A DNA stretch of 64,000 nucleotides from an uncultured Leptospirales bacterium (GTDB taxonomy: Bacteria; Spirochaetota; UBA4802; UBA5550), in NCBI GenBank assembly GCA_964514165.1, contig CAZEPS010000002.1, positions 873 to 64,872 on the forward strand, read 5' to 3'. Made by a program: the position numbers and the translations under genes. Position 1 is the stretch's first letter, and every line of letters starts with the position of its first letter. Under the pieces are notes generated by a model. It was not told where the DNA came from. It made no database searches and saw only the letters and a list, made by a program, of their open reading frames with translations. Below, one piece after another: positions 3,780 to 63,223 of this stretch.

Positions 3780-3886
3780 GGGAACATCTATTAATTGAAA
3801 AAAAGGTTCCCTTTTGGGTACATATATTGGTTTAACTTTTATCAGCCTTGATTAACCAGTGCTAAATAAAATTGTTAGATGTACCC
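3780..3886 (+). repeat. structured intergenic repeat, family A, copy A1 (hairpin1 - core TTCCCTTTTGGGTACATATATTGGTTTAA - hairpin2 - AAATTGTTAGATGTACCC)
   Basis: Hairpin 1 is GGGAACATCT..AGGTTCCC. The core is shared with copies at 7655, 44501 and 63116. The terminal GGGTACATAT / AGATGTACCC pair is inverted. It lies directly upstream of the ECF sigma gene. Confidence 0.75.
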
Positions 3887-4005
3887 CGTTATAAAAAGAT
3901 ACAATCCGGTACCAGGCAGGCCAGGATAACCCCCGGGGCCAGTGTACTCGACAGTAAAGTAACGGTTCAACAAAAGCCGATTTCCATTACAGCAGTGAGG
4001 CCGCC

Positions 4006-4521
4006 ATGGTCGACATTTCGAGAATTGAGGATCTCTACCGGGAGAACCGGCGCCGGCTCCTTACCTTCATCTCCAGGATAACACAGGCCCCCGATTACGC
4101 CGAGGACATCCTCCATGATTCATTTGAACGGATACTCCTCTACATGGCGAGATACGATCTTAAGGAGGTGAACCTCCGGGCATTCGTATTCAAGACCGCC
4201 CGGAATTGCTCCATAAACTGGCTGAAAAGAAACAGCAGGATTCACCTCCCCATAGAGGTCGTGGACGAGCACCCCCATTACCAGATGGTTCATGAGAGAA
4301 TTGAATCGCCCCCCCTGACGGAGATCATGGTTCCCTATCTTGCCGGCGTGGGGGAGGGATGCCGTACGGTCTTTTTTATGAAGAATATCTCAGCCCTGTC
4401 CACGTCACAGATAGCGGAACGACTCGGGGTTTCGGAGCGGACCGTCCGCCGCAGGGTCCGCCGGGTCAACCAGTTTCTCAAAACGAATTACGCGCTTTCT
4501 GATTTTTCCGACGTGGCTTAG
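4006..4521 (+). CDS. RNA polymerase sigma-70 family, ECF subfamily sigma factor
   Basis: 171 aa. Region 2 (DILHDSFERILLY) and region 4 (HTH near the C-terminus: IAERLGVSERTVRRRV). No anti-sigma gene follows. Confidence 0.85.
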   Translation: MVDISRIEDLYRENRRRLLTFISRITQAPDYAEDILHDSFERILLYMARYDLKEVNLRAFVFKTARNCSINWLKRNSRIHLPIEVVDEHPHYQMVHERIESPPLTEIMVPYLAGVGEGCRTVFFMKNISALSTSQIAERLGVSERTVRRRVRRVNQFLKTNYALSDFSDVA

Positions 4522-4760
4522 ATTTTCTTTCCCTGATTTCAACAGAGTCAATTACATTAATGACAGCGACGGCACGAGAACTCACCCCCGTCCAGCCGAG
4601 CGTTCTTTTGACATCCTGTCACCCCCTGCGTATGTATTACACTCTCAGCGTAGAGCCCCCACACCGCGCGGCCAGCGCGGGGAACCAAAAGGGTTTTAAC
4701 CAACCCCTGGTTCAAAATCAAAGAAGGATAGGAGTAGTGTCGTAAAAAATATTATAAAGA

Positions 4761-4789
4761 TTGACACTGTACTAATAATTTAGTACACT
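4761..4789 (+). promoter_or_regulatory. sigma70-like promoter with embedded palindromic operator upstream of the toxin-antitoxin pair
   Basis: TTGACA (4761-4766), a 17-bp spacer, then TACACT (4784-4789). A perfect 7-4-7 palindrome GTACTAA-TAAT-TTAGTAC (4769-4786) fills the spacer. This is the classic autoregulation layout for a type II TA module. Confidence 0.55.
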
Positions 4790-4796
4790 TGGGGGG

Positions 4797-5177
4797 TTGG
4801 CGGAATATATCGCATATGAGGGTGACTATTTCACCATCGAATGGTATCATACTGAACGTGATGAGAGTCAAACACTTGAATATTTCAATGGTTTGAGTGA
4901 AAATCAGCAGGACAAGTTACTCTATCTTTTTCGGCGTATGGGTGATTTCGGCAAGATCAATAACAAGACGCAGTTTCGCTATGAAGGGGATGAGATATTC
5001 GCCTTTAAGCCTCAGCCGGACAGATTTCTGTGCTTTTTCGTGAAGGGAAAGAAAATCATTGTGACGAACGCGTTCAGGAAAAAGTCTGATAAATTGCCGA
5101 AGAATGAAAAAGAAAGAGCGGTAAGCTGCCGTGACGATTACATGCAACGAACTAAAAAGGGAATCTATTATGACTAA
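4797..5177 (+). CDS. higB: type II toxin-antitoxin toxin, RelE/ParE superfamily (HigB / Gp49-like)
   Basis: 126 aa with a TTG start after a GGGGGG SD. Gp49/HigB-like pattern (FKP..R.L.FF..G..I.L...F.KK). It overlaps the downstream HTH gene by 8 bp. The local context is low-GC. Confidence 0.7.
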   Translation: MAEYIAYEGDYFTIEWYHTERDESQTLEYFNGLSENQQDKLLYLFRRMGDFGKINNKTQFRYEGDEIFAFKPQPDRFLCFFVKGKKIIVTNAFRKKSDKLPKNEKERAVSCRDDYMQRTKKGIYYD

Positions 5178-5448
5178 GAAAATATCAACCTATGAACGAA
5201 TCATGAAAGATCCCCAAAGGCGGGGACGTTTTGAGAGGGGATACAATGAATTTCTTCTTAACGAATTTCTCCTTGAAGCCATGGAGGAAAACAATATTTC
5301 AGTGAGAAAACTCGCGGAAAAGGCCGGTGTGTCCCCGGCAATTATCCAGAATATTCGTTCCGGTAAAACATCGAACATTACCCTGAAAAAATTAAATGAA
5401 ATCACCACGGCTCTGGGATATCGAATCAAATTCCAGAAAATGAAGTAA
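5170..5448 (+). CDS. higA: XRE-family HTH antitoxin (HigA-like)
   Basis: The ATG at 5170 overlaps the toxin stop (ttATGActaa). HTH_XRE motif (VRKLAEKAGVSPAIIQNIRSGK). The toxin-first gene order is typical of HigBA. Confidence 0.7.
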   Translation: MTKKISTYERIMKDPQRRGRFERGYNEFLLNEFLLEAMEENNISVRKLAEKAGVSPAIIQNIRSGKTSNITLKKLNEITTALGYRIKFQKMK

Positions 5449-5672
5449 CTATCTCCTGGTATAAGGCTGTTTACACTACTGTGTCGACATGAGATTCCTT
5501 AACTCACCTTAGACATGAAATTCTTCACCTGATTTTTGCGACAAATGAATTGATGATGTGCTTGATAAACTGGCGGTCTTCCTCGGTCAGGTTATCAAGT
5601 ACCGACAGCTGCTCGATGAGTTCCCTGTCACCTTTCGGGGATTGGGGAAATAAAAAGAAGATCTCCCCTTTA

Positions 5673-7649
5673 TTACGAAACCCCCTTGAGCCAGCAGACC
5701 TGGTACGGCCGCAGCTTCAGAGAGATGGTGTCACAGTTCTCCCGGAATTCCCGCTTGCCCGCGATGTCTTTCCATGTGCTGACTGAACAGCCCAGGGCTC
5801 CGATGTCGATAACCACTGACTGGTTCTCCCCGGTGACATTGGTCAGGGCTATTATCCGCTCTTCCCCGTCCGGGGAGGTGCGGAGCACCGAGAAGATCCC
5901 GTCGTTCAAAAAAAGTACCTTCTGGGGCCCCTGGGGGTGGAAGGCCTTCTCACAGATCCGCTTGTGGATGAGGCGGGAGAGCCCGAAGGAGACCTTCCGG
6001 GCGGTGGTGTTCTCGTCCAGGAGGGCCTTTTCCAGGTCTTTTCTTAAAATGATGTTTCGGTTGATGCTCCGTTTCTCGTGTCCCTTCCTGATGGCCTCAA
6101 TGTCGTTTTTTGATCCCAGGAGGCCGTGAAGGTATACTCCCGGAACGCCCACGATCACCAGGGGTATCGAGCGGGCAGCCAGGTAGCGCCGCACCTGGAT
6201 GTCGACGTCCTCCCGGGAGCCCTCGAGGTTCATGGCGCTGTAGGAGGTAATGTTCAACTCGTAGGGGGACTCGCTCCCGTCCGGTTCGGTCCGGTAGGAG
6301 ATGAGGCCCCCGTGCTCCGTGACGTTGTCGGCCATGGAACGAATTTCCTCGTCGGTGAGTATCCCCCTGGCGCCGAGGAGGCCGATGCCGTCGTGGCTGT
6401 CGAGAAAATTGAAGAAGGTCGCGGCCGGCGAGGGGTTTTTCAGGGTGTCCAGCCACCGGGTGATGCGTTCGACGTTTCCGGTATGCATGGTATGGAGCAC
6501 CAGGGGGGGCAGGGCGAAATTGTACACCATCTGGGCCTCGTCGTGCCCGTCGCCGAAATAGCTGATGTTGTCCTCATGGGGCACGTTTGTCTCGGTAATG
6601 AGGGCGACGTGAGGCGCGACCTCGTCGAGCATCTTCCTGAAGAGCTTAATGATGGCGTGGGTCTGCCAGAGGTGCGCCCCGGTCGTTCCCGGCTCGTCCC
6701 AGAGGTAGGTCACCGCGTCAAGGCGGACAAGGTCCGCCCCCCTGCGGACGTAGTAGAGGAGGATCTCCGTCATCTTCAATAGCACTTTCGGGTTCTGAAA
6801 TTTCAGGTCGATCTGGTCCGGGCTGAAGGTGGTCCACACGTATTTCTTCCCGTGGTAGGTGTAAAACTCGGTGAGTACGCTGGAGGTGCGGGGGCGCATC
6901 AGTTTCCTGAGCCTTGCCTTCGATACCTTCCGCTTCTCGGAAAACACGGTGAAGAAGTCGTCATACTCTTTGTTCCCGTTCAGGAACTCCTGGAACCAGA
7001 AACTTCGCGCCGATATGTGGTTGAAGACACCGTCGAACATCAGCTTGAAGTCGTCTTTCATCCGGTTGATGTCGGCCCACTGGCCGAGGTTCGGGTCAAT
7101 CTGCCGGAAGTCCATGACCGCGAACCCCCGGTCCGACGAGTAGGGAAAAAAGGGAAGGATGTGTATGGTATTGAAAACCCCCCGGAGGTACCGTGTCGAT
7201 ATCTCAAGAAGTGTCTGCAGGGGTTTCCGGTGTTCGTCCTTGACCAGGTCGCCGTAGGTTATGAGCACCGCGTCCTGTTCAGTGAAGCGATCCGCCGGGG
7301 TGATGCCCTTCTCCCACTCGATCATCTCTTTCGTCTTGTAGGCGTGGTACACTCTGAGTATCCTCTCGAATTCCGGGAGGTACCGTTCAGCCTTCCGTTT
7401 CCCGTAGAGGGAGGTGAGGGTCTCTCTGATACAGGCCCTGGTTTTCTCTTTGATGCGGTATAGGGGGCGCTTGAAGTCTGCCTCAAGGGTGTGGAACCTG
7501 CTCCTTTCCACGGGTTTTTCTTCTTCCTTCCTGTACACTGGTCCTTCCTGTGTGAGATGTATTTCTCTCTCCCGGTGACGGGATGGAGTTGAATGACATC
7601 TGATGATTTGTTTGACATTTAGAATTTCTAACATGAAAATACTTTTCAT
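5673..7649 (-). CDS. GH13_18 sucrose-phosphorylase-like glycoside phosphorylase
   Basis: Conserved sucrose-phosphorylase blocks (ILPFFPYSSDRGFAVMDFRQIDPNLG, DGVFNHIS, VRLDAVTYL). The true start is probably internal. The first ~100 codons of the ORF overlap the intergenic palindrome and are low-complexity. Confidence 0.75.
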   Translation of the reverse strand: MKSIFMLEILNVKQIIRCHSTPSRHREREIHLTQEGPVYRKEEEKPVERSRFHTLEADFKRPLYRIKEKTRACIRETLTSLYGKRKAERYLPEFERILRVYHAYKTKEMIEWEKGITPADRFTEQDAVLITYGDLVKDEHRKPLQTLLEISTRYLRGVFNTIHILPFFPYSSDRGFAVMDFRQIDPNLGQWADINRMKDDFKLMFDGVFNHISARSFWFQEFLNGNKEYDDFFTVFSEKRKVSKARLRKLMRPRTSSVLTEFYTYHGKKYVWTTFSPDQIDLKFQNPKVLLKMTEILLYYVRRGADLVRLDAVTYLWDEPGTTGAHLWQTHAIIKLFRKMLDEVAPHVALITETNVPHEDNISYFGDGHDEAQMVYNFALPPLVLHTMHTGNVERITRWLDTLKNPSPAATFFNFLDSHDGIGLLGARGILTDEEIRSMADNVTEHGGLISYRTEPDGSESPYELNITSYSAMNLEGSREDVDIQVRRYLAARSIPLVIVGVPGVYLHGLLGSKNDIEAIRKGHEKRSINRNIILRKDLEKALLDENTTARKVSFGLSRLIHKRICEKAFHPQGPQKVLFLNDGIFSVLRTSPDGEERIIALTNVTGENQSVVIDIGALGCSVSTWKDIAGKREFRENCDTISLKLRPYQVCWLKGVS

Positions 7650-7660
7650 GTTAGAAATTC
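7622..7660. repeat. 39-bp perfect palindrome (18-bp arms GAATTTCTAACATGAAAA / TTTTCATGTTAGAAATTC, 3-bp centre)
   Basis: Read directly. It lies in the divergent region between the GH13 gene and the FGase gene, and abuts repeat A2. Confidence 0.8.
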
Positions 7661-7740
7661 CCTTTTGGGAACATATTTTGGTTTAAATCGGTCTGAATAT
7701 GAAAAAAAATTATTGATAAAACCGGTTTATTTATGTACCC
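7655..7740 (+). repeat. structured intergenic repeat, family A, copy A2
   Basis: Core TTCCCTTTTGGGAACATATTTTGGTTTAAA and terminal ATGTACCC match A1. Hairpin 1 is replaced by the 39-bp palindrome. Confidence 0.65.
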
Positions 7741-7798
7741 TTAATCATCGCGGTTTACTAACCTTACAGCAGTATACTATATTCTGAATTTTATTTCA

Positions 7799-8584
7799 AT
7801 GATAAATTACTGGAAGTTCATTCAGGGGGAAGATCTGCCGGTCGTCGCGGCGGCGATCCATGCCGGAAGCCGGATACCGCCCGGTTTCAGGAAACGGTAC
7901 GCCCTTCCGGCGTCAGGCCGCCTCCGGGAGGAGGACCCCTTCACCGGGTACTTTACCCGCATAACAGGGAACCGTATCCTGGTAAGGCTCTCCCGCTTCG
8001 CTGCGGACCTGAACCGGCCCCGGGAGAAGGCGGTCTACCTGAATCCGGAGGACTCCTGGGGGCTTCGGGTTTGGAAAGATTTACCGGCCGGTGAAGAACT
8101 CGGGAGTCTCCTTTCCCTGTACGACCGCTTCTACCGGGAACTCGGGGAATACCTCAACGCGGTGATCGAAAGGCGCCGACGAGTCGTCATGCTTGACATT
8201 CACTCCTACAACCACCGGCGGGAGGGTCCCGAAGCTCCGCCGGCAAACCCGGAGGAAAACCCGGCCATAAACGTCGGCACCGGCACCATGGGCACCGACA
8301 CGTGGAACCGGCTCATAAAGAGGTTTATACGTGACCTGAAAAGCTGTAATGTTGGGGGTGAGCCCCTGGACGTGCGGGAGAACGTGAAATTCTCCGGGGG
8401 GCATTTCCCCCGGTGGATCCACGAAAACTACCGCGACCGGGTGTGCGTTCTTTCCGTTGAACTGAAGAAGATTTTTATGGACGAATGGACCGGCAAACAG
8501 GATACTGCGGTCATGAAGGATATCCGCCGCGCCCTTGAACACGCCATTCCCGGGATAGCGGAAGAAATCGCCGGGCTGAACTGA
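7799..8584 (+). CDS. N-formylglutamate amidohydrolase family protein
   Basis: 261 aa. FGase-family pattern (HAGS..P, DIHSY). First gene of a conserved trio. Confidence 0.7.
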   Translation: MINYWKFIQGEDLPVVAAAIHAGSRIPPGFRKRYALPASGRLREEDPFTGYFTRITGNRILVRLSRFAADLNRPREKAVYLNPEDSWGLRVWKDLPAGEELGSLLSLYDRFYRELGEYLNAVIERRRRVVMLDIHSYNHRREGPEAPPANPEENPAINVGTGTMGTDTWNRLIKRFIRDLKSCNVGGEPLDVRENVKFSGGHFPRWIHENYRDRVCVLSVELKKIFMDEWTGKQDTAVMKDIRRALEHAIPGIAEEIAGLN

Positions 8585-8589
8585 AAAGC

Positions 8590-10524
8590 ATGAACAGGAA
8601 GACCCATAAAAAAGACCAGGTAGAAACCGTGCTCGAGAGTATCGAGGAGAACCGGAGCGTACATCTCCACATTCCCTCGGTGGGGAGGATCCACGTCGAC
8701 CGGAAACTCCCCTTTATCATTCTCTACCGGTTTAACGGCGACTTTCGCGACTATGGCGCGTCACGCCTCATCAGGAGCGAGTCGTCCTACCTTCTGTACG
8801 AGGATGGGGAAGAAGGATTCCCCCTCTTGAAAAAACTTCTCGAGTCGGTGGTGACGCTCCTTGACCGGGAGTTCGGCGCCTGCCTCATCGTGTCTATCCG
8901 CTTTACCGACGACTATACCCTGGACGACAGCGAGATGCTCGGGCCCGAGGTCGCGATCATCAACCCCGAAGGGCGGCAGGCCGAGAACTTCACCGGCACC
9001 CTGGAGCGGGAGCTCGGGAAGTTCATGGTCGAACGGACGAAGATGAGAATCCGCCTGCGGCGTATCAGGGGGGAGTGCCTTCCGGAGATTACACGCGTTG
9101 TCGGGAAAAAACTCCCTGCCGGGCTGAACTGCTTTACCGTGGGGGTGGAGCTCAATCCATTTTTCATCAACCCGGAGAACACCATGCCCTACCCCCTGGT
9201 GTTCCGGCGGTTCCACCGGTTTTTTTCCCGGTCGTTGCGGCGGGCCCTCTTCGATTTTACCAGGACCAAGACCGGAAGGAGGCCGAAGAACTACCAGGCC
9301 CTGGGCAACAGGGGCTTCGTCAGGAACGTCCGTGACATCGACCGCTCCATCGCGGAGATCAGCAACCTGTTTGACCTGCTTTTTCTCGTGACGCCGTATA
9401 ACGTTGACGACGCGTGGCAGGTTTTCCGGAGATCCGGCTTCAGCAAAAAACCGGATTTCCGGTACCGCCCGGTACCGGTCGAGCCCGCCAGGCTCAAGCA
9501 CCAGCTCTTTAAGATAGATCTGAATTCCATAGATGACCCGGTATTTTTTCAGCTTTTTTACGAAAAACAGCTTGAACTCGACCGGCAGATTTCGCTACTT
9601 CAAGACAGGGGGACGAAACGGTTCCTCTACGGCAGCCTGCAGCTTTACGGCGGGATTGGCGACGAGCTTTGCGAAACCGCCGAGAAGATCCTGGAACGCT
9701 ATCCCCGGCCGGTTCCGGGAACGGGCCGGGAGAGCTACTATTCGGCGAAGGAGATCGCCGGCCGGGCGGTCCGCGAGATCGAAAAGTACCGGAAGCAGTA
9801 CCGGGAGATAACCTCCAAGGTGGTGATCGACGACGACGTGAGCGGCATCCTGGTTTCACGGGGGAACCTCTTCATCGGGACGAAGACCAGGATACGGAAG
9901 ACCAGGCTGCGATCGGTCCTGAACCACGAGGTGGGGATCCACATAGTCACCTATTTCAACGGCATGTCCCAGCCCTTTCAGCTTTTGAAGTCAGGGTTCG
10001 CCGGGTACGATGAGCTCCAGGAGGGGATAGCGATCCTCTCGGAACATATAACAGGGGGCCTGGACGAGAACCGGCTCAGGCTCCTGGCGGCACGGGTCAT
10101 GGCGGCGAGGATGATGGTGGACGGCGCCGATTTCGTTGATGCCTTTCGCCGGCTTCACCGGGAATACGGGTTCTCGCAAAACCTTTCGTTCATTATCGCC
10201 ATGCGGAACTTCCGTAGCGGTGGTTTCATAAAGGACATTGTCTACCTGAAAGGATTTATAAAACTTTTATACTATCTACACGAAAACAACAACTGGGAGC
10301 ATTTATTTTTCGGCAAGGTGTCTTTTGAACAGATTCCGTTCGTGCTGGAACTCGAATCGAGAAAAATACTCGGCAATATCCCGGTAATACCCGGTTTTAT
10401 CAGCGAGTACATGGAAAAGAACGGGAACCGTAACGGCGGGCTGAGTCCCGAATACCGGGACCTTCTTGCAATCATGGATAAATCAAAAATATTAGATATG
10501 CCCTTATCACATAACAAGAGTTAA
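8590..10524 (+). CDS. flavohemoglobin expression-modulating QEGLA-motif protein (DUF1704 / carboxypeptidase-like domain)
   Basis: 644 aa. HEVGIHIVT metal-binding-like motif and the ELQEGIAILSE (QEGLA-type) motif. It follows the FGase gene by 6 bp and precedes the ATP-grasp gene. Confidence 0.7.
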   Translation: MNRKTHKKDQVETVLESIEENRSVHLHIPSVGRIHVDRKLPFIILYRFNGDFRDYGASRLIRSESSYLLYEDGEEGFPLLKKLLESVVTLLDREFGACLIVSIRFTDDYTLDDSEMLGPEVAIINPEGRQAENFTGTLERELGKFMVERTKMRIRLRRIRGECLPEITRVVGKKLPAGLNCFTVGVELNPFFINPENTMPYPLVFRRFHRFFSRSLRRALFDFTRTKTGRRPKNYQALGNRGFVRNVRDIDRSIAEISNLFDLLFLVTPYNVDDAWQVFRRSGFSKKPDFRYRPVPVEPARLKHQLFKIDLNSIDDPVFFQLFYEKQLELDRQISLLQDRGTKRFLYGSLQLYGGIGDELCETAEKILERYPRPVPGTGRESYYSAKEIAGRAVREIEKYRKQYREITSKVVIDDDVSGILVSRGNLFIGTKTRIRKTRLRSVLNHEVGIHIVTYFNGMSQPFQLLKSGFAGYDELQEGIAILSEHITGGLDENRLRLLAARVMAARMMVDGADFVDAFRRLHREYGFSQNLSFIIAMRNFRSGGFIKDIVYLKGFIKLLYYLHENNNWEHLFFGKVSFEQIPFVLELESRKILGNIPVIPGFISEYMEKNGNRNGGLSPEYRDLLAIMDKSKILDMPLSHNKS

Positions 10525-10527
10525 ACT

Positions 10528-11571
10528 ATGGATATTGGATTTGTCATTAATTCCCTGGACACGGAAAAGTCCACTTACAGCACCACCCGCCTCGCAAGGA
10601 ACGCGGTGAACCGGGGGCACCGGGTCTGGACCGTCGAGGTGGATGACTTCGCATACGATCCGGACGAAATGATCCGGGCCAGGGCCACCACCGTGCCGAA
10701 GGACAACTACAAGAATGACGAGCTCTACCTCTCCGATCTCAGGGGCAAGAAGGCCGTAAGCGAGCGCATAACGGTGAGCGACCTGGACATCCTGATGCTC
10801 AGGAACGATCCTTCCGAGGACACTATCAGGCGGCCCTGGGCCCAGCACGCGGGCATAACCTTCGGGCGCATGGCCATGAACCACGGCGTCATCGTCCTCA
10901 ATGACCCGAACGGCCTGGCCAAGGCGATGAACAAGTCCTACTTCCAGACCTTCCCCGAGCAGGTACGGCCCTCCACCCTCATCACCAGGGATCGGGGGGA
11001 CATCAGGCATTTCGCGAAGCACCACAAGCAGATTGTCATAAAGCCCCTTCAGGGCTCCGGGGGGACCAACGTCTTCATGGTGCGGCCCGAAGACATGCCG
11101 AACATCAACCAGATGATCGACGCCATAATCCGGGACGGGTACATCATCGCCCAGGAGTACCTGCCGGCAGCGGAGCAGGGGGACGTGCGCCTCTTTGTCA
11201 TGAACGGCAGCCCCCTTCGTTACAAGGGAAAATTCGCGGCCTTCAGCCGTGTGCGGAGCGGGGGAGACCTGAGGAGCAACATCCACGCCGGGGGTTCCCT
11301 CGAGGCAGCCGAGGTCACTGAGGATATGCTCCACCTGGTGGAGATAGTGAGGCCGAAACTCGTGGTTGACGGCATGTTTCTCGTGGGCCTCGACATCGCA
11401 GGGGACAAGTTGATGGAAATCAACGTGTTCACTCCCGGCGGTCTCGGGAGCGCCCAGAAGTTCGAGAAGGTCAATTTCGCCAGCGCGGTCATCCAGGCCC
11501 TGGAGCGAAAGGTCCAGTACATGAAGTACTACAACCGGCGGTTCAGCAACGTGGAGATGGCGACGCTGTAA
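10528..11571 (+). CDS. ATP-grasp family protein (glutathione synthetase / RimK-like alpha-L-glutamate ligase homolog)
   Basis: 347 aa with a prokaryotic GshB/RimK-like ATP-grasp fold. It starts 4 bp after the QEGLA gene. Confidence 0.7.
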   Translation: MDIGFVINSLDTEKSTYSTTRLARNAVNRGHRVWTVEVDDFAYDPDEMIRARATTVPKDNYKNDELYLSDLRGKKAVSERITVSDLDILMLRNDPSEDTIRRPWAQHAGITFGRMAMNHGVIVLNDPNGLAKAMNKSYFQTFPEQVRPSTLITRDRGDIRHFAKHHKQIVIKPLQGSGGTNVFMVRPEDMPNINQMIDAIIRDGYIIAQEYLPAAEQGDVRLFVMNGSPLRYKGKFAAFSRVRSGGDLRSNIHAGGSLEAAEVTEDMLHLVEIVRPKLVVDGMFLVGLDIAGDKLMEINVFTPGGLGSAQKFEKVNFASAVIQALERKVQYMKYYNRRFSNVEMATL

Positions 11572-13566: not shown

Positions 13567-13575
13567 GGATCCCTG

Positions 13576-14118: not shown

Positions 14119-14385
14119 CAGGGATAGCTGTTGAAACAATTCATTGATTATATCAATCATTTCCCGCACATACGCGCATTCGCAATGTGCCGGACAGGGG
14201 CGCAGTTCGGATTTTTGAAGGCAGTAGCCGGGGCAGTCGTCGCTCCCGGTTAGGTGATTCTTTGATAGTAAAAGTGTTTGCCGACTTGAATATTGTGATG
14301 TATTATCATATCAGGGTGAAGCGTACACCCTGAGTAATCAACATCGAGGATCTGATCAGCAAAAACGTGCTTTCAAAAGGAAGAA

Positions 14386-16726: not shown

Positions 16727-16759
16727 GATTTTTGTCAGGAGCCTGTTACGGTGCGGACT

Positions 16760-18685: not shown

Positions 18686-18796
18686 GGGGACTTCTAAAAA
18701 CTATGTTTTTGAAGTCCCCTTGTGTGCACAAAGTCTGATAAAACCAGCATTTACAATTATAAGGATAATTGTAAATGCTGGTTTTTAGATGTGCCC
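18686..18796 (+). repeat. structured intergenic repeat, family B, copy B1 (hairpin GGGGACTTCTAAAAAC..GAAGTCCCC - CACAAAGTCTGA - hairpin2 - TTTAGATGTGCCC)
   Basis: Near-identical architecture to B2 at 62963. It shares the terminal TTAGATGTRCYC with family A. Located upstream of the + strand gene at 19080. Confidence 0.75.
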
Positions 18797-19079
18797 TTAT
18801 TGAATTTCGAAGCGGCCGGATCAGAGAACGGTAATGCCTGACTGTATTTTTTGTCATGGTAATCTTCAGTTCCACCTCTGCAAAAAGTGTTTGCTTCGGC
18901 ATACAGCTTTGCCGCACAATGGGTTTTATCGGTTCTGCCTTTCGTGCCGCTTCGGATGGGTGCTGCGGCGTAACCGGTACTTCCTGATTGCTTGCAGACG
19001 CATGTAATCGGCATATTCGAACCTTGAATTATATCATGATGGGAAAATAAAAAACCATATCAGCTCGTTAGTATACACC

Positions 19080-33016: not shown

Positions 33017-33049
33017 GGGAACCTCTTATGTAATTTCTGGATGTTCCCC
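33017..33049 (+). repeat. solo family-A-type hairpin GGGAACCTCTTATGTAATTTCTGGATGTTCCC upstream of adk
   Basis: Same GGGAACCTCT..GTTCCC stem as hairpin 1 of copy A4. The core and hairpin 2 are absent. Confidence 0.5.
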
Positions 33050-44500: not shown

Positions 44501-44590
44501 GGGGACCTTTAATAATTAAACAGGAGGTTCCCATTTGGGTACATAGTTTGGTATAAATTTTATTCAGCCGTGATTCAATTCTGTACGAAC
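44501..44590 (+). repeat. structured intergenic repeat, family A, copy A3
   Basis: Hairpin 1 GGGGACCTTT..AGGAGGTTCCC, core TTCCCATTTGGGTACATAGTTTGGTATAAA, then TTTTATTCAGCC as in A4. The 3' end is divergent. It ends 18 bp before the TPR gene start. Confidence 0.65.
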
Positions 44591-57026: not shown

Positions 57027-59132
57027 ATGGACAAGCTTTTTTATCCCGATTCTATTGCCATTATCGGACTATCATCCAAGCCGAACAACATACCGAGGCT
57101 CGTTCTTGAAAACCTTATCCGTTGGGGATACCGGGGAAGAATCTTCGGGGTCAATCCCACGTCAGAGGACCAGCATGTCAACGGCATAAAAATGTATAAA
57201 AGCCTTTCGGACCTCCCGGTGGTACCGGACCTGGCCTTCGCCCTCATACCGGCCAGGTATGTTCCCGCGACCATCGATGAGTGCGGGAAGGTCGGCATCA
57301 AGTGGATGGCCATTCCCTCCGGCGGTTTTAACGAGCTCGGGGGTGACGGGGCTAAAATAGCCGATGCCGCGGTGCAGGCCGCCGGAAAATACGGCATCCG
57401 TTTCGTCGGCCCTAACGGGGTCACAGTCGCCAACACGGCAAACGGCCTCTGCCTCCCTTTTGTTCCCTCGTACAGCCCCCCCAGGGGGCACATGTCGGTA
57501 ATTTCCCAGAGCGGGGGGGTCGGCCTCATGATGTGGAACCTGATGACCGACGAGAAGGTGGGTATGGCGAAGTTCGCCAGTATCGGGAACAAACTGAACA
57601 TGGACGAGGTGGATTTCCTCGAGTACTTCGGCCGGGACCCGGAGACGAAATACATCTGCATGTACCTGGAAAGCATCCCGAGAGGGGATGATTTCCTCAG
57701 GGTCGCGAGCCAGATAGACAAGCCGATAATCGTGCTCAAGTCGAACACCACCGAGGCCGGCCACAAGACCGCCATGAGCCATACCGCGGCCGTGAGCAAC
57801 GACGAGGACATCATCGACTCCGCCTTCGAGCGGGCCGGGATTATCCGTATCAAGGCCTTTTCCGATTTTATCGCCGTGGTGAAGGCTTTCAGCATGCCCC
57901 CGATGAAGGACAAGCGGATCATGGTCATGAGCCCGGCCGGAGGGTTCACGGTCATGATGGCGGACCTGTGCGAGCGTGAGGGGTTCGAGTTCGCGGACCC
58001 GGGAAAGGAGTTTTACGAGAGCCTGCAGCAGTTTTCCAACGCCGGGGTCATCAACTTCTCAAATCCCCTGGATATGGGGGACATCTACGACGCCGGGATG
58101 TACCCGCACATATTTTACAACATCATGCACAATGAGCACGTGGACGGGGCGGTGTACGTGGGGCAGTGGCCCCACATGCCGAAGGGGGACGACGTGTTCT
58201 ACCGCATGTTCCACACCGATCTCTCGAAAGAGGCGACCGGCACCCTCCTCTCGTCGGGAAAACCGATGGGTATATGCCTCTACGGCCTCGCCGCCACTAT
58301 TACCCGGATCAAGCAGAATATGGAGATCCCGATTTTCAACAGCCCGGAGGAGATGGTGCGGGCCCTCAGGAAACAGCACGATTATTATCAAACAAAGAAG
58401 GAGGGCCCCCTTGAGCTGAAAGAACCGGCAGGTATCGATAAAAAAAGCGGGGCGGATTGGATCGCAGGCCGGGAAGGCGACATCGGCGAAGAGGCCATGG
58501 AACTGCTCGATTACTACGGCATTTCAGCGGCGCCGTCCGGGGCAGCAAATTCCGCGAAGGACGCAGCCGCCCTGGGCAAAAAGTTCGGATTCCCGGTGGT
58601 GATGAAGGTTGTGTCCCCGGACGCCCTCCACAAGTCCGACGCCGGGGGTGTCATCCTGAACATAGCCGGCGAGGCGGCCGCGGAACAGGCCTTCAACGAT
58701 ATCGAGAGGAACCTGGCCGCCTACAAAAAGGGCGCACGCTTCGACGGGGTGAGGGTGATGAAACAGGCGGGCGAGGGGTACGACATGTTCATCGGCGGGA
58801 AGATGGACGACTCCTTCGGGCCGGTGGTATTCTTCGGGTACGGCGGCATCTATATCGAGGTCTTCCATGACGTGGAGAACGTCCTCTGCCCGTCGAACCG
58901 GAAAGAGATTGAGAAGCACCTGAAGCGGCTCAGGACCTGCAAGATCATCAGCGGTATCCGGGGCAGGGGGCCGGGGGACATCGCCGGATACGCGGACATG
59001 ATCGAGCGGGTCAGCTATCTCCTGGCGGACCATCCCGAGATAAAGGAACTCGACCTGAACCCGGTGCGCATACTCGGGGACGGTTCCGGGGTCTTGGCCC
59101 TGGACGCCCGTATGCGAATAGCCCGGGGGTAG
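57027..59132 (+). CDS. acetate--CoA ligase (ADP-forming) family protein, fused alpha/beta domains
   Basis: N-terminal CoA-binding and succinyl-CoA-synthetase-like flavodoxin domains. C-terminal ATP-grasp domain (ELLDYYGI .. KVVSPDALHKSDAGGV); 701 aa. Confidence 0.85.
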   Translation: MDKLFYPDSIAIIGLSSKPNNIPRLVLENLIRWGYRGRIFGVNPTSEDQHVNGIKMYKSLSDLPVVPDLAFALIPARYVPATIDECGKVGIKWMAIPSGGFNELGGDGAKIADAAVQAAGKYGIRFVGPNGVTVANTANGLCLPFVPSYSPPRGHMSVISQSGGVGLMMWNLMTDEKVGMAKFASIGNKLNMDEVDFLEYFGRDPETKYICMYLESIPRGDDFLRVASQIDKPIIVLKSNTTEAGHKTAMSHTAAVSNDEDIIDSAFERAGIIRIKAFSDFIAVVKAFSMPPMKDKRIMVMSPAGGFTVMMADLCEREGFEFADPGKEFYESLQQFSNAGVINFSNPLDMGDIYDAGMYPHIFYNIMHNEHVDGAVYVGQWPHMPKGDDVFYRMFHTDLSKEATGTLLSSGKPMGICLYGLAATITRIKQNMEIPIFNSPEEMVRALRKQHDYYQTKKEGPLELKEPAGIDKKSGADWIAGREGDIGEEAMELLDYYGISAAPSGAANSAKDAAALGKKFGFPVVMKVVSPDALHKSDAGGVILNIAGEAAAEQAFNDIERNLAAYKKGARFDGVRVMKQAGEGYDMFIGGKMDDSFGPVVFFGYGGIYIEVFHDVENVLCPSNRKEIEKHLKRLRTCKIISGIRGRGPGDIAGYADMIERVSYLLADHPEIKELDLNPVRILGDGSGVLALDARMRIARG

Positions 59133-60150: not shown

Positions 60151-62229
60151 ATGCCACTCCATAACGTGAGAAACATCGGGATCGCGGCCCATATCGACGC
60201 GGGAAAGACCACGGTCACCGAGAGAATGCTGTACTTCACCGGTATCACGAGGAAGCTCGGCGAGGTCCATGACGGTGAGGCCACCATGGACTTCATGAAG
60301 CAGGAGCAGGAACGGGGGATAACCATCGCTTCCGCCGCCATTTCCTGCATCTGGAACGATCACGCGGTGAACATCATCGACACACCGGGCCACGTTGACT
60401 TCACCGTTGAGGTGGAGCGTTCCCTCCGGGTTATTGACGGGATGGTCGCCCTGTTCTGCGCCGTGGCTGGGGTCGAACCCCAGAGCGAAACAGTTTGGAA
60501 CCAGGCTGACCGGTACAAGGTCCCCCGCATCGCCTTCGTGAACAAGATGGACCGCATCGGCGCGGATTTCTATGACGCTGTCAAGCAGATGGACGATCAC
60601 CTGGACGCGAACCCGGTGCCCTTCCATGTGCCGATCGGTTCTGAAGAAAACTTCCAGGGCTCCATCGACATTATCGAGAGAAAGGCGGTCATATTCAAGG
60701 ATTTCGATCGCCACGTCACCGATGTGCCGGAAGAATACCGGGAACAGTGCGAGGTGGCCCGGCTCAAGCTCATCGAAAAGCTTGCCGATTACGACGAGGA
60801 GGTGGGGGAGCTCTACCTGAACGAGCAGGATGTCCCTGTTGAACTCCTGAAAAAAGCGGCCCGGAACGCCACCCTGAAGCTCCTCATAACCCCTGTCTTA
60901 TGCGGGTCCGCCTACAAGAACAAAGGTGTCCAGCTCCTCCTGGACGCGATCATTGATTTCCTTCCGTCACCGGTCGACATAGGGGCGATACACGGCATCG
61001 ACCTGGATGACAGGGAGAAGTACCACGCGCGCCATCCTTCACCGAATGACCCCTTCTCGGCTCTGGTCTTCAAGCTGATACACGATCCTTACGTGGGCCA
61101 GCAGACCTTTATTCGGATATACTCCGGTGAGCTGAAGAGCGGCATGCAGGTAATGAACTCGACTAAGGATAAGCCGGAGCGGATCGGCCGCATCATGAAG
61201 ATTCACGCCAAGGAGCGTGAAGAGGTCGAGAGCGCGGGCCCGGGCGAAATCGTGGCACTCATCGGCATGAAGTATTCCAAGACCGGCGACACCCTCTGCG
61301 ACAAGGAGAACCAGCTTCTTCTTGAGTCTATATTCATACCCCCGACGGTCATCGAGCTGAAGGTTTCCCCCACCAGCAAGAAGGAGGAGGAGAAGCTCGG
61401 AGCCGCCCTCAGGAAGCTCTCAATGGAAGACCCGTCCTTCAACGTCCGTTACGACGACGAGACCAGCGAGACGGTCATTTCCGGCATGGGCGAACTTCAC
61501 CTGGAGATCATCATAGACCGCCTGAAGCACGAGTTCGGCGTGGACGCCATTATCGGCGAGCCCTCGGTCGCCTTCAGGGAGACCATCACCGCGGAGGTAG
61601 AGTCCGATTACAAGCACTCGAAGCAGACCGGCGGCAAGGGGCAGTTCGCCCACACCTATATGCGGCTCGAGCCGAACAAGGGGAATGGCTTTGAATTCGT
61701 TGATCACATCAAGGGCGGGGTCATCCCTGCAGAATTTATCCCCTCGGTGAAGAAGGGGATCGTGAGTACCATGGACGAGGGTATCCTCGCCGGGTTCCCG
61801 ATCGTTGACGTCAAGGTTGTGCTCAACGACGGTAACTTCCACCCGGTTGATTCCTCCGATATGGCCTTCAGGACCTGCGGTTCAATCTGCTTCAAGAACG
61901 GTTTCCTCAAGGCGGATCCTATCCTCCTTGAACCGCTTATGAAGATCGAGATCAACACACCCGACGAGTACATCGGGGACATCGTGGGAGACCTGAACAA
62001 GCGGCGGGGACGCATCGAGTCGATGCGGCGCTACCGGAAGGGCTCCCAGAAGCTGAACGGATTCGTCCCCCTGATGGAGATGTTCGGGTACGCGACCCAG
62101 CTCCGAAGCGTCTCGAGCGGCCGCGCGAACTACTCCATGGAGTTCCATGAATACGTGCCCATCAACAGGGATATTCAGGAACGGGTGCTGAAAGATATCG
62201 CAGAAAAGAAAAAGGAAAAAGCCAGTTAA
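60151..62229 (+). CDS. fusA: elongation factor G paralog (stand-alone, EF-G2-like)
   Basis: [10 protein letters not shown]1, DTPGH, NKMD. Full five-domain EF-G length (692 aa). It is not adjacent to rpsL/rpsG/tuf. Confidence 0.9.
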
Positions 62230-62254
62230 GAAAAGCAATTAGAATTAATTTTTA

Positions 62255-62318
62255 ATGAGAGGCGCGATGTACCTCTCATACAGAACCCATGAAAATGTAT
62301 ACTCATGCATTTTCATGG
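62255..62318 (-). repeat. two-hairpin intergenic element, family C, copy 2 (inverted relative to copy 1)
   Basis: ATGAGAGGCGCGATGTACCTCTCAT and CCATGAAAATGTATACTCATGCATTTTCATGG (perfect 11-bp arms). They share the 11-mer ATGAGAGGCGC and the 13-mer AATGCATGAGTAT with copy 1. Confidence 0.65.
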
Positions 62319-62350
62319 TAGGAAGAAAAGGCGGGAATATCCCGCCTTTT

Positions 62351-62815
62351 CTATTGCAGTGACTTCTTCAATCTGTTTACCCAATCACTCTTCCTTTTCT
62401 CCTCGGTTTTGTAGAAGTGAAGGAGCTTATGGATTTGTTTGCAGGTTTCCGGTGAGAGGTCGTGCTCGACCTTGCACGCCTCCCTTTCAGCTGTTTTCAG
62501 GTCCAGGTTGAGGACCACGTGATAGTATTCCGTGAGGCAGCGGTGCCTGCTGTAGATGCTTTCGGCAATGGTTTTCCCCTTGCCGGTAAGTTCTATGAAG
62601 CCGTATTTTTCGTAGTCAATAAGGCCCAGGTCTCTGAGCTTGTTCAGGGCCGCGGTCACGCTCGGCATCTTGATGGAAAGTTTTTTTGCGATGTCCTTGA
62701 CCCTGACCACCCTGTGTTCCTCTGAAAGCATGGCTATGGCTTCCATGTAGTCTTCCATGTTCGAGGTGAGGCCGGTTTCCCGGTACAGATCATCAAGTTG
62801 TAACACGGTCATCAT
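62351..62815 (-). CDS. DtxR/MntR-family metal-dependent transcriptional regulator
   Basis: N-terminal winged HTH (DYMEAIAMLSEEHRVVRVKDIAKKLSIKMPSVTAALNKLRDLGLI) and a metal-binding dimerization region; 154 aa. Confidence 0.8.
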   Translation of the reverse strand: MMTVLQLDDLYRETGLTSNMEDYMEAIAMLSEEHRVVRVKDIAKKLSIKMPSVTAALNKLRDLGLIDYEKYGFIELTGKGKTIAESIYSRHRCLTEYYHVVLNLDLKTAEREACKVEHDLSPETCKQIHKLLHFYKTEEKRKSDWVNRLKKSLQ

Positions 62816-62962
62816 TGTCTTTTCATTGCCGTAATCGCTCTAAAAATGTCAAGATATTAACATTGTTAATCATATATTAATAAGATTAGATCTTTCTAAT
62901 ATGTCAATAAAAAATGATGAAAATGTGAAAATATTGACGTTGATCTCTCTTGCCCTTTTTTA

Positions 62963-63067
62963 GGGGGCTTCTAAAAACTCATTTTTTGAAGCCCCCTCGG
63001 GTACACAAAGTCTGACCCAGCACCATTTTTTAAAAAAATGGTGCTGGACTGGTTGTTAGATGTGCTC
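62963..63067 (+). repeat. structured intergenic repeat, family B, copy B2
   Basis: GGGGGCTTCTAAAAACTCATTTTTTGAAGCCCCC - TCGGGTACACAAAGTCTGA - CCCAGCACCATTTTTT/AAAAAAATGGTGCTGG hairpin - TTGTTAGATGTGCTC. Same architecture as B1. Confidence 0.75.
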
Positions 63068-63115
63068 TTTAGTAAAAACTGTTTGACGGCGGTATTTTCA
63101 TGACAGAGTATACAT

Positions 63116-63223
63116 GGGAACCTCTATAAATTAAACAAGAGGTTCCTCTTTGGGTACGTATTTTGGTTTAAATTTTATTCAGCCCTGATTAATCAGGGCT
63201 GAATAAAATTGTTAGATGTACCC
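63116..63223 (+). repeat. structured intergenic repeat, family A, copy A4 (tandem with B2)
   Basis: GGGAACCTCT..AGAGGTTCC hairpin, core TTCCTCTTTGGGTACGTATTTTGGTTTAAA, ATTCAGCCCTGATTAATCAGGGCTGAAT hairpin, and AAATTGTTAGATGTACCC identical to A1. Confidence 0.75.

Follow-up and report, generated by a model that had tools for sequence, protein, structure and literature searches.

The window analysed here, a stretch of 64,000 nucleotides from an uncultured Spirochaetota bacterium, contains six copies of a ~105–120 bp element of two types (A and B) and one solo hairpin, all of them on the + strand:

A1, 3780..3889, + strand: hairpin 1 (3780-3811), linker TTTT, hairpin 2 (3816-3886) and a 3′ extension CGT; followed after 116 nt by the ECF sigma gene (4006); covariance model score 87 bits, E=1e-20.
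A2, 7621..7743, + strand: a longer, divergent hairpin 1 (7621-7662; GAATTTCTAACATGAAAA-TAC-TTTTCATGTTAGAAATTC) and a degenerate hairpin 2 (7667-7740); flanked by the genes for the sugar phosphorylase (−, true start ~7516) and FGase (+, 7799); 80.5 bits.
B1, 18686..18799, + strand: hairpin 1 (18686-18719) and a hairpin 2 whose inner stem of 20 bp is perfect and runs into TTTTT; its neighbours are an MGMT-like gene (−, start 18520) and an AraC-type gene (+, 19080); 113.7 bits.
Solo hairpin-1-type unit, 33017..33048, + strand: GGGAACCTCT...GGATGTTCCC; lies in a tandem (+ +) spacer, with the adenylate kinase gene (33075) 26 nt downstream; left arm identical to that of A4, 3′ extension CCC-CGT in common with A1.
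A3, 44501..44590, + strand: truncated, with hairpin 1, the core and only the left arm of hairpin 2, lacking the right arm and the terminus; ends 17 nt before a TPR gene (44608).
B2, 62963..63070, + strand: 147 nt from the start of a DtxR-family gene (−, 62815) and 45 nt before A4; hairpin 2 flagged as terminator-like; 82.5 bits.
A4, 63116..63226, + strand: the best-preserved A copy, 86% identical to A1; lies 45 nt upstream of a secreted-protein gene (ATG 63272, ribosome-binding site AAGGAG); 104.1 bits.

A sequence-only reading had already placed seven features on the + strand of this DNA, and all of them were confirmed at or very near the positions that it gave. The start of A2, put there at 7655, had to be moved to 7621, and comparison with a relative places the true 3′ ends ~3 nt past the ...CCC at which the copies had been closed (hence 3780-3889 for A1). 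A3 cannot be counted among the "six full copies", since its hairpin 2 is missing the 3′ half and no terminus follows. The terminus described as shared by all copies was found in A1, A4, B2 and, with one mismatch, in B1, while A2 has a degenerate form (TTTATTTATGTACCC) and A3 none at all.

The family is far from what chance would produce in this DNA. The scan for its parts that had been proposed was run within the window and gave matches far above expectation: four to the A core TTGGGTACATATWTTGGTTTAA with up to 3 mismatches (0.00 expected, 0 in shuffles), four to the terminus TTGTTAGATGTRCYC (0.2 expected) and two to the hairpin-1 pattern (0.01 expected). A profile HMM and a covariance model, applied to both strands of the window, each recovered exactly the six copies and the solo hairpin, and no further copies on either strand. 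The solo unit matches weakly (E=1.1 and E=0.04, respectively), and A3 is still found by a covariance model built without it (32.9 bits, E=2.8e-6). Pairwise identity among the copies is 55–86%. The same two models found no copy in 75 kb of relatives, scans of public genomes, metagenomes and viruses found none either, and the suggested comparison with Rfam returned no known family. The elements are AT-rich (27–45% G+C vs. 53.9% for the window) and have no coding capacity, almost all reading frames of each copy being interrupted by stop codons.

The two-hairpin fold is real. Minimum free energies reach −54.9 kcal/mol (z −10.7) in B1, −50.6 kcal/mol (z −7.6) in B2 and −49.4 kcal/mol (z −9.0) in A4, with weaker folds in A1, A2 and A3 (z −1.9 to −3.3, A1 being the weakest). 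A test of compensatory changes, which the earlier reading had called for, showed that the fold of both hairpins is kept by covariation: double changes occur at 18 of the 43 pairs of the whole element, 85% of cells are paired vs. 42–52% with slid partners, and values as high as those observed did not occur in any of 500 shuffles. In hairpin 1, double changes affect 4 of 10 pairs, with 90% of cells paired; its sequence varies among A, A2 and B with the pairing kept, which argues for conservation as a structure and against the operator of one protein. The unpaired stretches ATWTTGGTTTAA / TTGTTAGAT are conserved between the variable stems. Folding is energetically slightly favoured on the + strand, and one G-U pair is invariant in all five full copies; wobble (G-U/G-T) pairs number 14 on the + strand vs. 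6 on the − strand, a difference that is not significant, and a G-U-rich helix 3 shows no covariation, one slid control being 67% paired. Palindromy does not by itself show an RNA function, because mobile palindromic elements maintain their palindromy too.

The ends of the elements were inspected together with their flanks. Each element is made of two palindromic units in direct order, and the feet of both share GGGNACNTCT...AGANGTNCCC (GGGAAC..GTTCCC and GGGTAC..GTACCC, similar and in the same orientation), so that the whole element is bounded by terminal inverted repeats, GGGNACNTCT...AGATGTNCCC. These match at 9 of 10 positions in A1 (GGGAACATCT vs. the reverse complement of the 3′ end, GGGTACATCT) and at 14 of 16 in B1 (GGGGACTTCTAAAAAC vs. 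GGGCACATCTAAAAAC). Flanking repeats of 3–4 bp occur at three copies (TTAT on both sides of B1, TTTA on both sides of B2, TTTA and TTAA around A2). No target-site duplication was found at A1, where the empty site is known, or at A4, making the pattern inconsistent across copies. The left flank reads TTTA in three of the six copies and TTAT in a fourth.

The orthologous spacers, whose comparison had likewise been proposed, revealed presence/absence differences at A1 and A2. The ECF-sigma, sugar-phosphorylase and FGase genes also occur in GCA_054919795.1, the closest genome on record (EF-G 91% identical). This genome cleanly lacks A1: window positions 3780-3891 are replaced by 2 nt, with both flanks conserved (position 3172 of the relative's locus L017 corresponds to window 3892, and 3175 to 3779; 110–112 nt are missing). 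The empty site reads ...GTGTATTTTTAATCTGTA/TTTAAAAAGACAC..., while the window reads ...GTGTATTTTTAATCTTTA, then the element (GGGAAC..GTACCCCGT), then TATAAAAAGATAC...; a promoter-like site, TTGCCG-16-TATTTT, is conserved in both species and lies 9 nt before A1. A2 is likewise absent from the 109-nt phosphorylase–FGase spacer of the relative. Since both copies are missing from orthologous spacers despite conserved flanking regulatory DNA, we read the copies as insertions; to judge from these alignments, A1 and A2 are insertions relative to the closest genome, and not ancestral leaders or promoters. Mobility, resting on two empty sites in one relative, is the most likely explanation.

The genomic setting of the six copies is uniform. 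The five independent loci of the six copies are all divergent spacers (− gene, + gene; p~0.01), and the copies share one orientation (p = 0.06 over these loci), 17–280 nt upstream of + strand starts. The sequence-only reading had given 20–150 bp for this distance, which fails for B1 (~280 bp before 19080, the first in-frame start of the AraC gene) and for B2, followed by A4 and not directly by a gene. It had also taken the orientation relative to the downstream genes as a sign of function. All copies do lie on the + strand, but because all five loci are divergent, a position upstream of a co-oriented gene arises automatically in either orientation and is uninformative. Nevertheless, one orientation combined with divergent promoter spacers leaves room for targeting or selection, since ordinary DDE-type MITEs or REPs are not expected to show such a bias. 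The placement itself is notable, though Correia elements set a precedent.

Taken together, the results lead us to propose, with a probability of roughly 0.72, that these repeats form a family, specific to this lineage, of small non-autonomous mobile DNA elements, MITEs in the broad sense, whose architecture resembles that of REP, BIME or IS200/IS605-derived palindromic elements. A transposase encoded elsewhere in the genome would recognise the element ends or the hairpin feet and direct insertion into AT-rich, TTTA/TTAT-like sites, a putative target preference; in a 54% G+C genome, such sites may be concentrated in promoter spacers. Copies like A1 would be co-transcribed as the structured 5′ end of the downstream mRNA, and any effect on expression would probably be a by-product and not the reason for the family's existence. 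The degenerate, truncated and solo copies (A1, A2, A3 and the solo unit), together with the 55–86% identity, fit an ageing selfish family. Several points speak against this proposal: the window has no transposase, parent insertion sequence or RAYT gene, the target-site duplication is inconsistent, and all copies share one orientation in divergent promoter spacers. In addition, a simple element defined by terminal repeats alone has no use for the perfect yet variable inner stems of hairpin 2, and no second genome with the family turned up in the scans. Among the candidates of the earlier reading, the MITE-like one is upheld by the empty sites of A1 and A2, the terminal inverted repeats and the AT-rich, non-coding sequence, while the leader or small RNA and the promoter cassette found no support; the preserved secondary structure that it stressed is confirmed by covariation, but the specific functions that it suggested are not supported.

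A sub-variant, which we consider possible though rather doubtful, is a strand-specific single-stranded DNA element, IS200/IS605-derived (PATE) or REP/RAYT-like. Its mobility would depend on an HUH Y1 transposase that binds the two hairpins on a single strand; insertion would occur 3′ of a TTTA-like site without target duplication, and excision could be seamless. The two hairpins with similar feet in the same orientation, the lack of a duplication at A1 (the sole site with a clean empty allele), the TTTA or TTAT left flanks, the + strand location of 6/6 copies, the + strand wobble excess and the invariant G-U pair all agree with it. Yet the wobble asymmetry is not significant and helix 3 is free of covariation, the orientation comes from only five loci, and the flank repeats of B1, B2 and A2 resemble target duplications. 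Hairpin 1 begins at the very end of the element, unlike in IS608, where the cleavage site lies ~19 nt from the hairpin foot. No Y1 transposase is present in the window, and in a more distant relative (L012) the lone Y1_Tnp gene is not surrounded by similar hairpins. Free-standing IS605-type stem-loops are nonetheless known in Borrelia plasmids (PMC2775950).

The elements might instead be cis-acting 5′ leader RNAs (for stability, attenuation, antitermination or docking of an RNA-binding regulator) recruited upstream of unrelated genes. Their distance from + strand starts, the covariation, the conserved unpaired stretches, the slightly better + strand energy and the divergent promoter spacers agree with this, and A1 should form an mRNA 5′ end because the conserved promoter-like site lies 9 nt before it. 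We nevertheless regard such a role as unlikely: the ECF sigma and FGase orthologues of the nearest relative lack the element though their upstream DNA is conserved, the downstream genes have no function in common, some copies are degenerate or truncated (A1 by its z-score, A3 by the loss of half of hairpin 2), Rfam, the relatives and the public scans gave no match, and co-orientation is automatic in a divergent spacer. It is very unlikely that they serve as portable promoter cassettes (sigma-70 or ECF-type) or as sites for a dimeric transcription factor, with hairpin 1 as a DNA palindrome. The sequence-only reading had pointed out that the GGAAC of hairpin 1 is similar to an ECF −35 and that an ECF sigma gene follows A1, but GGAAC cannot be the conserved −35 of that gene, because its counterpart in the relative is not preceded by the element. 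TTGACA in the A2 flank and GAAAAT in hairpin 1, at a 17-nt spacing, score 10/12, and TTGAC[AG] occurs within 45 nt upstream of 3/6 copies vs. 4.7% of intergenic positions; still, promoter-likeness just upstream of the left ends does not exceed the intergenic background (p=0.18), consensus scans of all copies found no sigma-70-like or other promoter in the conserved core, and hairpin 1 differs in A, A2 and B while its pairing is kept. Correia MITEs do carry promoters (PMC10969869). That each element is a small RNA gene of its own, or serves divergent genes as a bidirectional terminator or insulator, is hardly credible. The hairpins are very stable, and hairpin 2 of B1 (20-bp stem and TTTTT) and B2 resembles an intrinsic terminator, but no T-run follows the A-type hairpin 2, only one of six copies was flagged, no consistent promoter was found, between divergent genes no transcription arrives from upstream to be terminated, and there is neither an Rfam match nor a copy in the relative.

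The features of these elements match the published description of prokaryotic MITEs, which are <500 bp long and AT-rich, have terminal inverted repeats of 4–30 bp and direct repeats that fade with age, land in AT-rich intergenic DNA and give stem-loop transcripts (PMC10969869). Like the Correia/NEMIS elements of Neisseria, they are ~100–150 bp, non-coding and bounded by terminal inverted repeats, form stable stem-loops when transcribed, are present or absent between related genomes, and frequently lie directly in front of genes and so enter the 5′UTR; Correia elements map mostly to such positions (PMC10969869). They share no sequence similarity with Correia/NEMIS. The terminal repeats of Correia elements measure 26 bp, against 10–16 bp here. 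Correia elements also have a TA duplication as well as documented promoters and IHF sites, whereas the present copies show a duplication inconsistently (none at A1) and no detectable internal promoter; their interior forms two separate hairpins instead of one long one, and they share one orientation.

As in REP/BIME/REPIN systems, short palindromic units with a conserved foot occur solo (33017) or composite and clustered (B2 and A4), and palindromy is kept through compensatory change. REPs typically lie between convergent genes or at 3′ ends, and BIME/REPIN units are inverted; the units here are in direct order, all copies being in divergent 5′ spacers, and neither a RAYT gene nor any other transposase or parent insertion sequence was seen in the window. 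They are also AT-rich, unlike REPs, which PMC3184786 describes as small G-C-rich stem-loops. With PATEs and the IS605 stem-loops of Borrelia, the family shares two hairpins on one strand, a uniform strand, no target duplication at the one well-resolved site and a recurrent TTTA 5′ of the left end; it differs in that the window has no Y1 transposase, hairpin 1 is not subterminal but directly adjoins the left junction, and three copies have duplication-like flank repeats. A spirochaete precedent exists in IS605-type stem-loops that are dispersed near genes and show conservation at the RNA level, including G-U pairs (PMC2775950). According to the summary in PMC10969869 (citing PMC3049150), the pneumococcal BOX, RUP and SPRITE repeats are small and modular: their end modules are conserved while the middle varies. 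They fold into stable RNA structures and occur in intergenic clusters with one another, and some of them are terminator-like. These repeats are unrelated in sequence and host, and BOX is built of boxA, boxB and boxC with a variable boxB copy number, whereas two hairpins with shared feet are found here; to the extent of that summary, the modular plan, conserved ends, variable middle, stable structure, clustering and partly terminator-like character are common to both.

In the window, six copies of a two-hairpin intergenic element and one solo hairpin were found at the positions given by the sequence-only reading, every one of them on the + strand. All copies are intergenic, 90–123 bp long and spaced 4–26 kb apart with genes of both strands in between. 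The gene setting, derived from domain searches, ortholog lengths and an ORF map, showed that all five loci are divergent 5′ spacers, with 0 convergent and none at a 3′ end:

3780–3889, + strand: A1, between the arginase cluster with a small ORF (−) and the ECF sigma gene (+)
7621–7743, + strand: A2, between the sugar phosphorylase gene (−) and the FGase gene (+)
18686–18799, + strand: B1, between the MGMT-like gene (−) and the AraC-type gene (+)
33017–33048, + strand: solo hairpin-1-type unit
44501–44590, + strand: A3, truncated, between the MCP gene (−) and the TPR gene (+)
62963–63070, + strand: B2, between the DtxR-type gene (−) and the secreted-protein gene (+)
63116–63226, + strand: A4, in the same spacer as B2

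An element consists of hairpin 1, a conserved core (of subfamily A or B), a variable hairpin 2 and a terminus; the family includes full, decayed, truncated and solo copies, with B2 clustered with A4. Some details of the initial description required correction. Not all six copies are full, as A3 ends without the right hairpin-2 arm and the terminus; A2 lies where it was placed, but its real start is at 7621 and it has its own, longer hairpin 1. The terminal motif, ascribed to every copy, does occur four times in the window (0.2 expected), but it is degenerate in A2 and missing from A3. The A core TTGGGTACATATWTTGGTTTAA, with up to 3 mismatches, gave four matches vs. 0.00 expected from dinucleotide shuffles, and the hairpin-1 pattern two vs. 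0.01. A profile HMM built on the six copies and a covariance model built on five recovered exactly the known copies and no further ones on either strand of the 64 kb. The truncated A3 was held out from the covariance model and scored 32.9 bits (E = 2.8e-6). The solo hairpin scored weakly; its presence at 33017 shows that hairpin-1-type units can occur by themselves. A G+C-rich 29-nt palindrome, GGGGACATCTACGACGCCGGGATGTACCC (58077–58105, +), carries end motifs like those of the elements inside the CDS 57027–59132, an acetyl-CoA-synthetase-like (ATP-grasp_5) gene; with about 0.05 matches expected by chance, it is probably a coincidence, though it could conceivably be an element remnant.

Minimum free energy folding turned each element into two hairpins, with A4, B1 and B2 reaching −49 to −55 kcal/mol (z-scores −7.6 to −10.7) and the decayed A1, A2 and A3 showing z-scores of −1.9 to −3.3. 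The feet of hairpin 1 (GGGNACNTCT ... AGANGTNCCC) and of hairpin 2 (GGGTACATAT ... AGATGTACCC) have a motif in common, and the element is therefore composed of two palindromic units in direct order, whose outer ends are mutually inverted. The inverted pairing of core start and terminus previously noticed in A1 and A4 captured this shared-foot motif only partially. The terminal inverted repeat matches at 9/10 positions in A1 (GGGAACATCT vs. the reverse complement of the 3′ end, GGGTACATCT), at 8/10 in A4, at 14/16 in B1 (GGGGACTTCTAAAAAC vs. GGGCACATCTAAAAAC) and at 11/16 in B2.

The search for compensatory changes, proposed as a check of both hairpins, showed that compensation keeps the pairing. 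In hairpin 1, double substitutions were found in 4 of 10 pairs across the A, A2 and B types, with 90% of cells paired. RNAalifold on the whole element recovered both hairpins, with double changes in 18 of 43 pairs and 85% of cells paired vs. 42–52% with slid partners, and these values were met by 0 of 500 shuffles. Hairpin 2 has an inner stem that is perfect but differs from copy to copy, so that part of the “covariation” is each copy's own palindromy. The elements have a G+C content of 27–45% vs. 53.9% for the window, their units being AT-rich except for a 3–6 bp G/C foot; pairwise identity among copies is 55–86%, and nearly all reading frames of all copies are broken by stop codons.

Divergent spacers make up about 39% of the intergenic bases in the window, which gives p ~0.0095 for their occupation at five loci out of five, while the single orientation common to five independent loci has p = 0.06. 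Co-orientation with the downstream gene, originally put forward as an argument for function, carries no weight, because in a divergent spacer an element has a co-oriented gene downstream whichever way it points. Nor does B1 lie 20–150 bp upstream of its gene, as had been stated: the earliest possible AraC-type start is about 280 nt beyond its end. Domain searches revealed no transposase, integrase, Y1 or RAYT genes among the window proteins scanned.

Several features of the neighbouring genes were recorded as well. To the left of A1, a polyamine-type cluster (595–3125, −), comprising a pyruvoyl-dependent arginine decarboxylase, a deoxyhypusine-synthase-like protein and an arginase/agmatinase-family protein, adjoins a bacterial SET-domain protein gene (114–593, +). 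A 71-aa ORF (3415–3630, −), which may encode a real small protein, lies in the long spacer that precedes the ECF sigma gene; the DNA around it is 70% identical in contig L017 of the closest genome on record, GCA_054919795.1, where a 72-aa gene is called at the corresponding position (3324–3542). A Gp49/HigB-like toxin-family gene (4797–5177, +) and a small opposite-strand ORF beside it (5190–5429) occupy the interval from the ECF sigma gene to the sugar phosphorylase gene; in the relative, the latter two genes directly adjoin one another (L017 2544–3059 and 706–2547). The toxin-family gene and the ORF beside it may be an inserted toxin–antitoxin-like module. The first-ATG ORF of the sugar phosphorylase (5673–7649, −) has 658 aa, about 45 aa more than its orthologs (603–629 aa); alignment with the relative favours a GTG start codon near 7516, and with that start the gene stays clear of A2. 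Downstream of A2, an operon (7799–11571, +) encodes an FGase (N-formylglutamate amidohydrolase family), a MATCAP/DUF1704 “QEGLA motif” protein (644 aa) and a glutathione-synthetase-like ATP-grasp protein; another contig of the relative, L015, keeps the same order for the MATCAP and ATP-grasp genes plus the FGase 3′ end. About 100 nt after its GSH-S-like ATP-grasp gene, L015 (3252–3333) matches window 31568–31650 (78%, 83 nt); as this gene nearly adjoins the 31568 match, the approximately 20 kb of window 11572–31567 are not at that place in the relative and may represent an island or a rearrangement. This block (11.6–31.5 kb) holds aroK-aroC, TetR, MGMT-like, AraC, dehalogenase and sugar-kinase genes as well as B1; the 535-aa ORF at 11959–13566 (+) is an AroK-AroC fusion, with shikimate kinase at residues 1–177 and chorismate synthase at 192–527.

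The relative GCA_054919795.1 is 91% identical to the window in EF-G, 88% in the sugar phosphorylase and 77% in the MATCAP-like protein; the named best EF-G matches are all Spirochaetota MAGs. Its contig L017 holds the FGase, sugar phosphorylase and ECF sigma orthologs. BLAST aligned L017 2544–3172 with window 4521–3892 and L017 3175–3543 with window 3779–3414, so that A1 is absent from the relative, where two bases stand in place of window 3780–3891 between conserved flanks. The junction reads ...TTGCCGttttcgggaaaaagtgTATTTTtaatctgta directly followed by tttaaaaagacac... in the relative, and ...TTGCCGgacctgaaaatctgtgTATTTTtaatcttta, then the element (GGGAAC...GTACCCCGT), then tataaaaagatac... 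in the window. On this alignment, the simplest reading is that A1 would be a 110-nt insertion without target duplication, since a TA or TTA duplication needs an additional 2-nt indel. A2 is likewise absent from the relative's 109-nt phosphorylase–FGase spacer: the relative has GAC-TTTA joined to CCAT where the window has GACATTTA, A2 and TTAATCAT, an arrangement compatible with a TTA/TTTA duplication. Neither 28 kb of GCA_054919795.1 nor 47 kb from three relatives at 83–84% EF-G identity yielded a copy. In the relative L011, homology upstream of DtxR ends 30 nt before B2 and synteny is broken, leaving no empty site for B2/A4. Taken together, these comparisons suggest that the elements are insertions into older, conserved regulatory spacers.

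Flank repeats were observed at B1 (TTAT/TTAT), B2 (TTTA/TTTA) and A2 (TTTA/TTAA), and none at A4. The left flank is TTTA in A1, A2 and B2, TTAT in B1, ACAT in A4 and TCCA in A3; the relative's empty A1 site reads TGTA.

Outside these genomes, the degenerate A core TTGGGWACRTANNTTGGTWTAA gave only chance matches in the GTDB species representatives, JGI metagenomes and IMG/VR (evidently without the window's own genome), judged as such because hairpin 1 and the terminus were missing from all of them. The B hairpin-1 pattern had 0 matches in IMG/VR, plasmid BLAST returned no match, and an 89-aa spurious ORF spanning B1 hit one irrelevant repetitive protein among 1.84 billion proteins. In the comparison with Rfam 15, tRNA-Phe alone matched at the gathering threshold, and at E ≤ 5 there were only sub-threshold hairpin look-alikes, namely miRNA precursors at B1 (24–26 bits, cut-offs 47–90) and sau-19 at A2 (30 bits, cut-off 80), so the elements matched no curated family at either setting. 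Over the stretches compared, Logan contigs of run SRR7048224 (1–2.5 kb) show 100% identity to the window; one of them (window 62042–63145) stops inside hairpin 1 of A4, and another begins at window 7715 inside hairpin 2 of A2. These ends could be assembly breaks due to repeats at other places in the genome, or could reflect poor coverage of AT-rich hairpins.

The results allow us to regard the elements, with a probability of about 0.7, as a lineage-specific family of palindromic mobile elements that are non-autonomous, their mover being encoded outside the window. What was directly demonstrated is a repeat family with inverted ends, palindromy backed by covariation, and two sites (A1, A2) that are empty in the relative; the mobile identity is concluded from the agreement of insertions, terminal inverted repeats and AT-rich non-coding stem-loops with the published MITE profile. 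The initial interpretation was thereby partly supported, an orientation-biased MITE being the one of its three options that the evidence favours. As to the other two, a dedicated 5′ leader RNA would account for hairpins upstream of genes, but it is disfavoured: in the relative, the same genes stand without the element, the genes downstream of the copies have no function in common, and several copies are decayed. A promoter cassette is disfavoured as well: sigma-70 and terminator scans of all five spacers found nothing consistent inside the elements and no sigma-70 or ECF promoter in the conserved cores, and promoter-likeness just upstream of the left ends does not exceed background (p = 0.18). 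The GGAAC of hairpin 1, suggested earlier as an ECF −35 element, fares no better, because the relative's orthologous ECF sigma gene has neither the element nor an upstream GGAAC hairpin. A small-RNA gene or terminator would fit the TTTTT that by eye follows hairpin 2 of B1, but the terminator-like form is limited to B-type hairpin 2; the terminator scan flagged hairpin 2 of B2 and a trivial 5-bp CCC-TTTT-GGG stem in A2, and A-type hairpin 2 is followed by TTGTTAGATG.

The mobile family may have been moved in either of two ways. Several features fit a single-stranded-DNA element (HUH, IS200/IS605- or RAYT-like): A1 without a duplication, the similar feet of the two hairpins, the TTTA recurring 5′ of the left end, one orientation in all copies, and a surplus of G-U/G-T pairs on the + strand (14 vs. 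6 on the − strand), one G-U being invariant in all five full copies. Against this stand the flank repeats at three copies, the position of hairpin 1 directly at the junction, and the fact that the G-U asymmetry is not significant and the invariant pair lies in the wobble-rich helix 3, which is unsupported by its controls. Equally possible is a MITE of the DDE type whose short duplication decays. In either case, a transposase encoded outside the window would move the elements, insertion would prefer a TTTA/TTAT target, and the inserted copies would presumably be co-transcribed with the downstream genes; a cognate insertion sequence, if any, would have ends starting GGGNACNTCTAA. As regards co-transcription, A1 lies 9 nt after a promoter-like TTGCCG-16-TATTTT, which is conserved in both species, and the ECF sigma mRNA should accordingly begin with A1. 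A2 separates a −35-like TTGACA from a −10-like TAACCT, which are contiguous in the relative (TTGACT-17-TAATCT), and its hairpin 1 offers GAAAAT at the right spacing; all of these are consensus matches only.

A further variant of the mobile-element reading holds that a strand-specific, duplication-free mover acting on single-stranded DNA homes to melted −10/start regions and installs a two-hairpin 5′ leader. We consider this unlikely, and keep it alive because the five loci are all divergent promoter spacers, TTGAC[AG] is in excess and the inner stems are perfect but differing. TTGAC[AG] lies within 45 nt upstream of three of the six copies vs. 4.7% of intergenic positions, a post hoc count in which two copies share one spacer. 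The positions of A1, 9 nt behind a conserved promoter-like −10, and of A2, amid the −35 and −10 of a promoter-like site in the relative, also fit this variant. To our knowledge, promoter-targeted, strand-specific insertion is not established for bacterial MITEs; such insertion would be indicated if the restriction to divergent spacers and the single orientation held genome-wide, and the family would then be a natural experiment in 5′UTR rewiring by mobile elements. If the identity as a mobile family is true, another lineage-specific family of small mobile repeats is added, in a poorly known uncultured branch of Spirochaetota. The elements would then explain why promoter spacers in such MAGs are long and AT-rich and where assemblies are likely to break, provide markers for strain typing, and warn annotators that these hairpins should not be labelled riboswitches, small RNAs or terminators.

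Comparison with known systems set several classes aside. The terminus contains GTTAGAT, which fits the integron attC motif GTTRRRY, but the inverse core RYYYAAC (GTTTAAC) is present in A1 only; there is also no cassette array, the copies being 4–26 kb apart, and no integrase in the window. By inspection, the A core resembles the sigma-54 promoter TGGCAC-N5-TTGC, but it has no −12 GC, and the B core departs from the motif. REP/BIME repeats differ in being short G-C-rich palindromes that usually occupy 3′ or convergent spacers and go with a RAYT gene, whereas our units are AT-rich and located in divergent 5′ spacers, with no RAYT gene in the window. The likeness to IS200/IS605-derived PATE is mixed: the two hairpins have similar feet and A1 has no duplication, but B1, B2 and A2 have flank repeats; the candidate 5′ target TTTA occurs at three of six left flanks; and the + strand bias comes from five independent loci only. 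A lone Y1_Tnp gene, IS200-like or RAYT-like (189 aa), is present in a relative with 83% EF-G identity (L012, 7923–8492, −), with no hairpins similar to the elements in its flanks. Dispersed IS605-type stem-loops are known in Borrelia (PMC2775950). The closest agreement is with prokaryotic MITEs, for which we took the criteria of PMC10969869, section 2.1: these are shorter than 500 bp, AT-rich, with terminal repeats of 4–30 bp and direct repeats fading with age, insert in AT-rich intergenic DNA, and yield transcripts forming stable stem-loops (PMC10969869). Our elements agree in size and non-coding nature (90–123 bp), in terminal inverted repeats within that range, in AT-richness, intergenic siting and predicted stem-loops (down to −55 kcal/mol, z −10.7), in dispersed copies (six plus the solo hairpin in 64 kb), and in presence/absence relative to GCA_054919795.1. 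For target-site duplication, flank repeats at B1, B2 and A2 stand beside A4, which has none, and A1, which is best explained without it. MITEs further presuppose a mobilising transposase or autonomous relative, and none was seen among the window proteins scanned. Finally, Correia elements are often found directly upstream of genes (PMC10969869), and the elements described here have the same habit.
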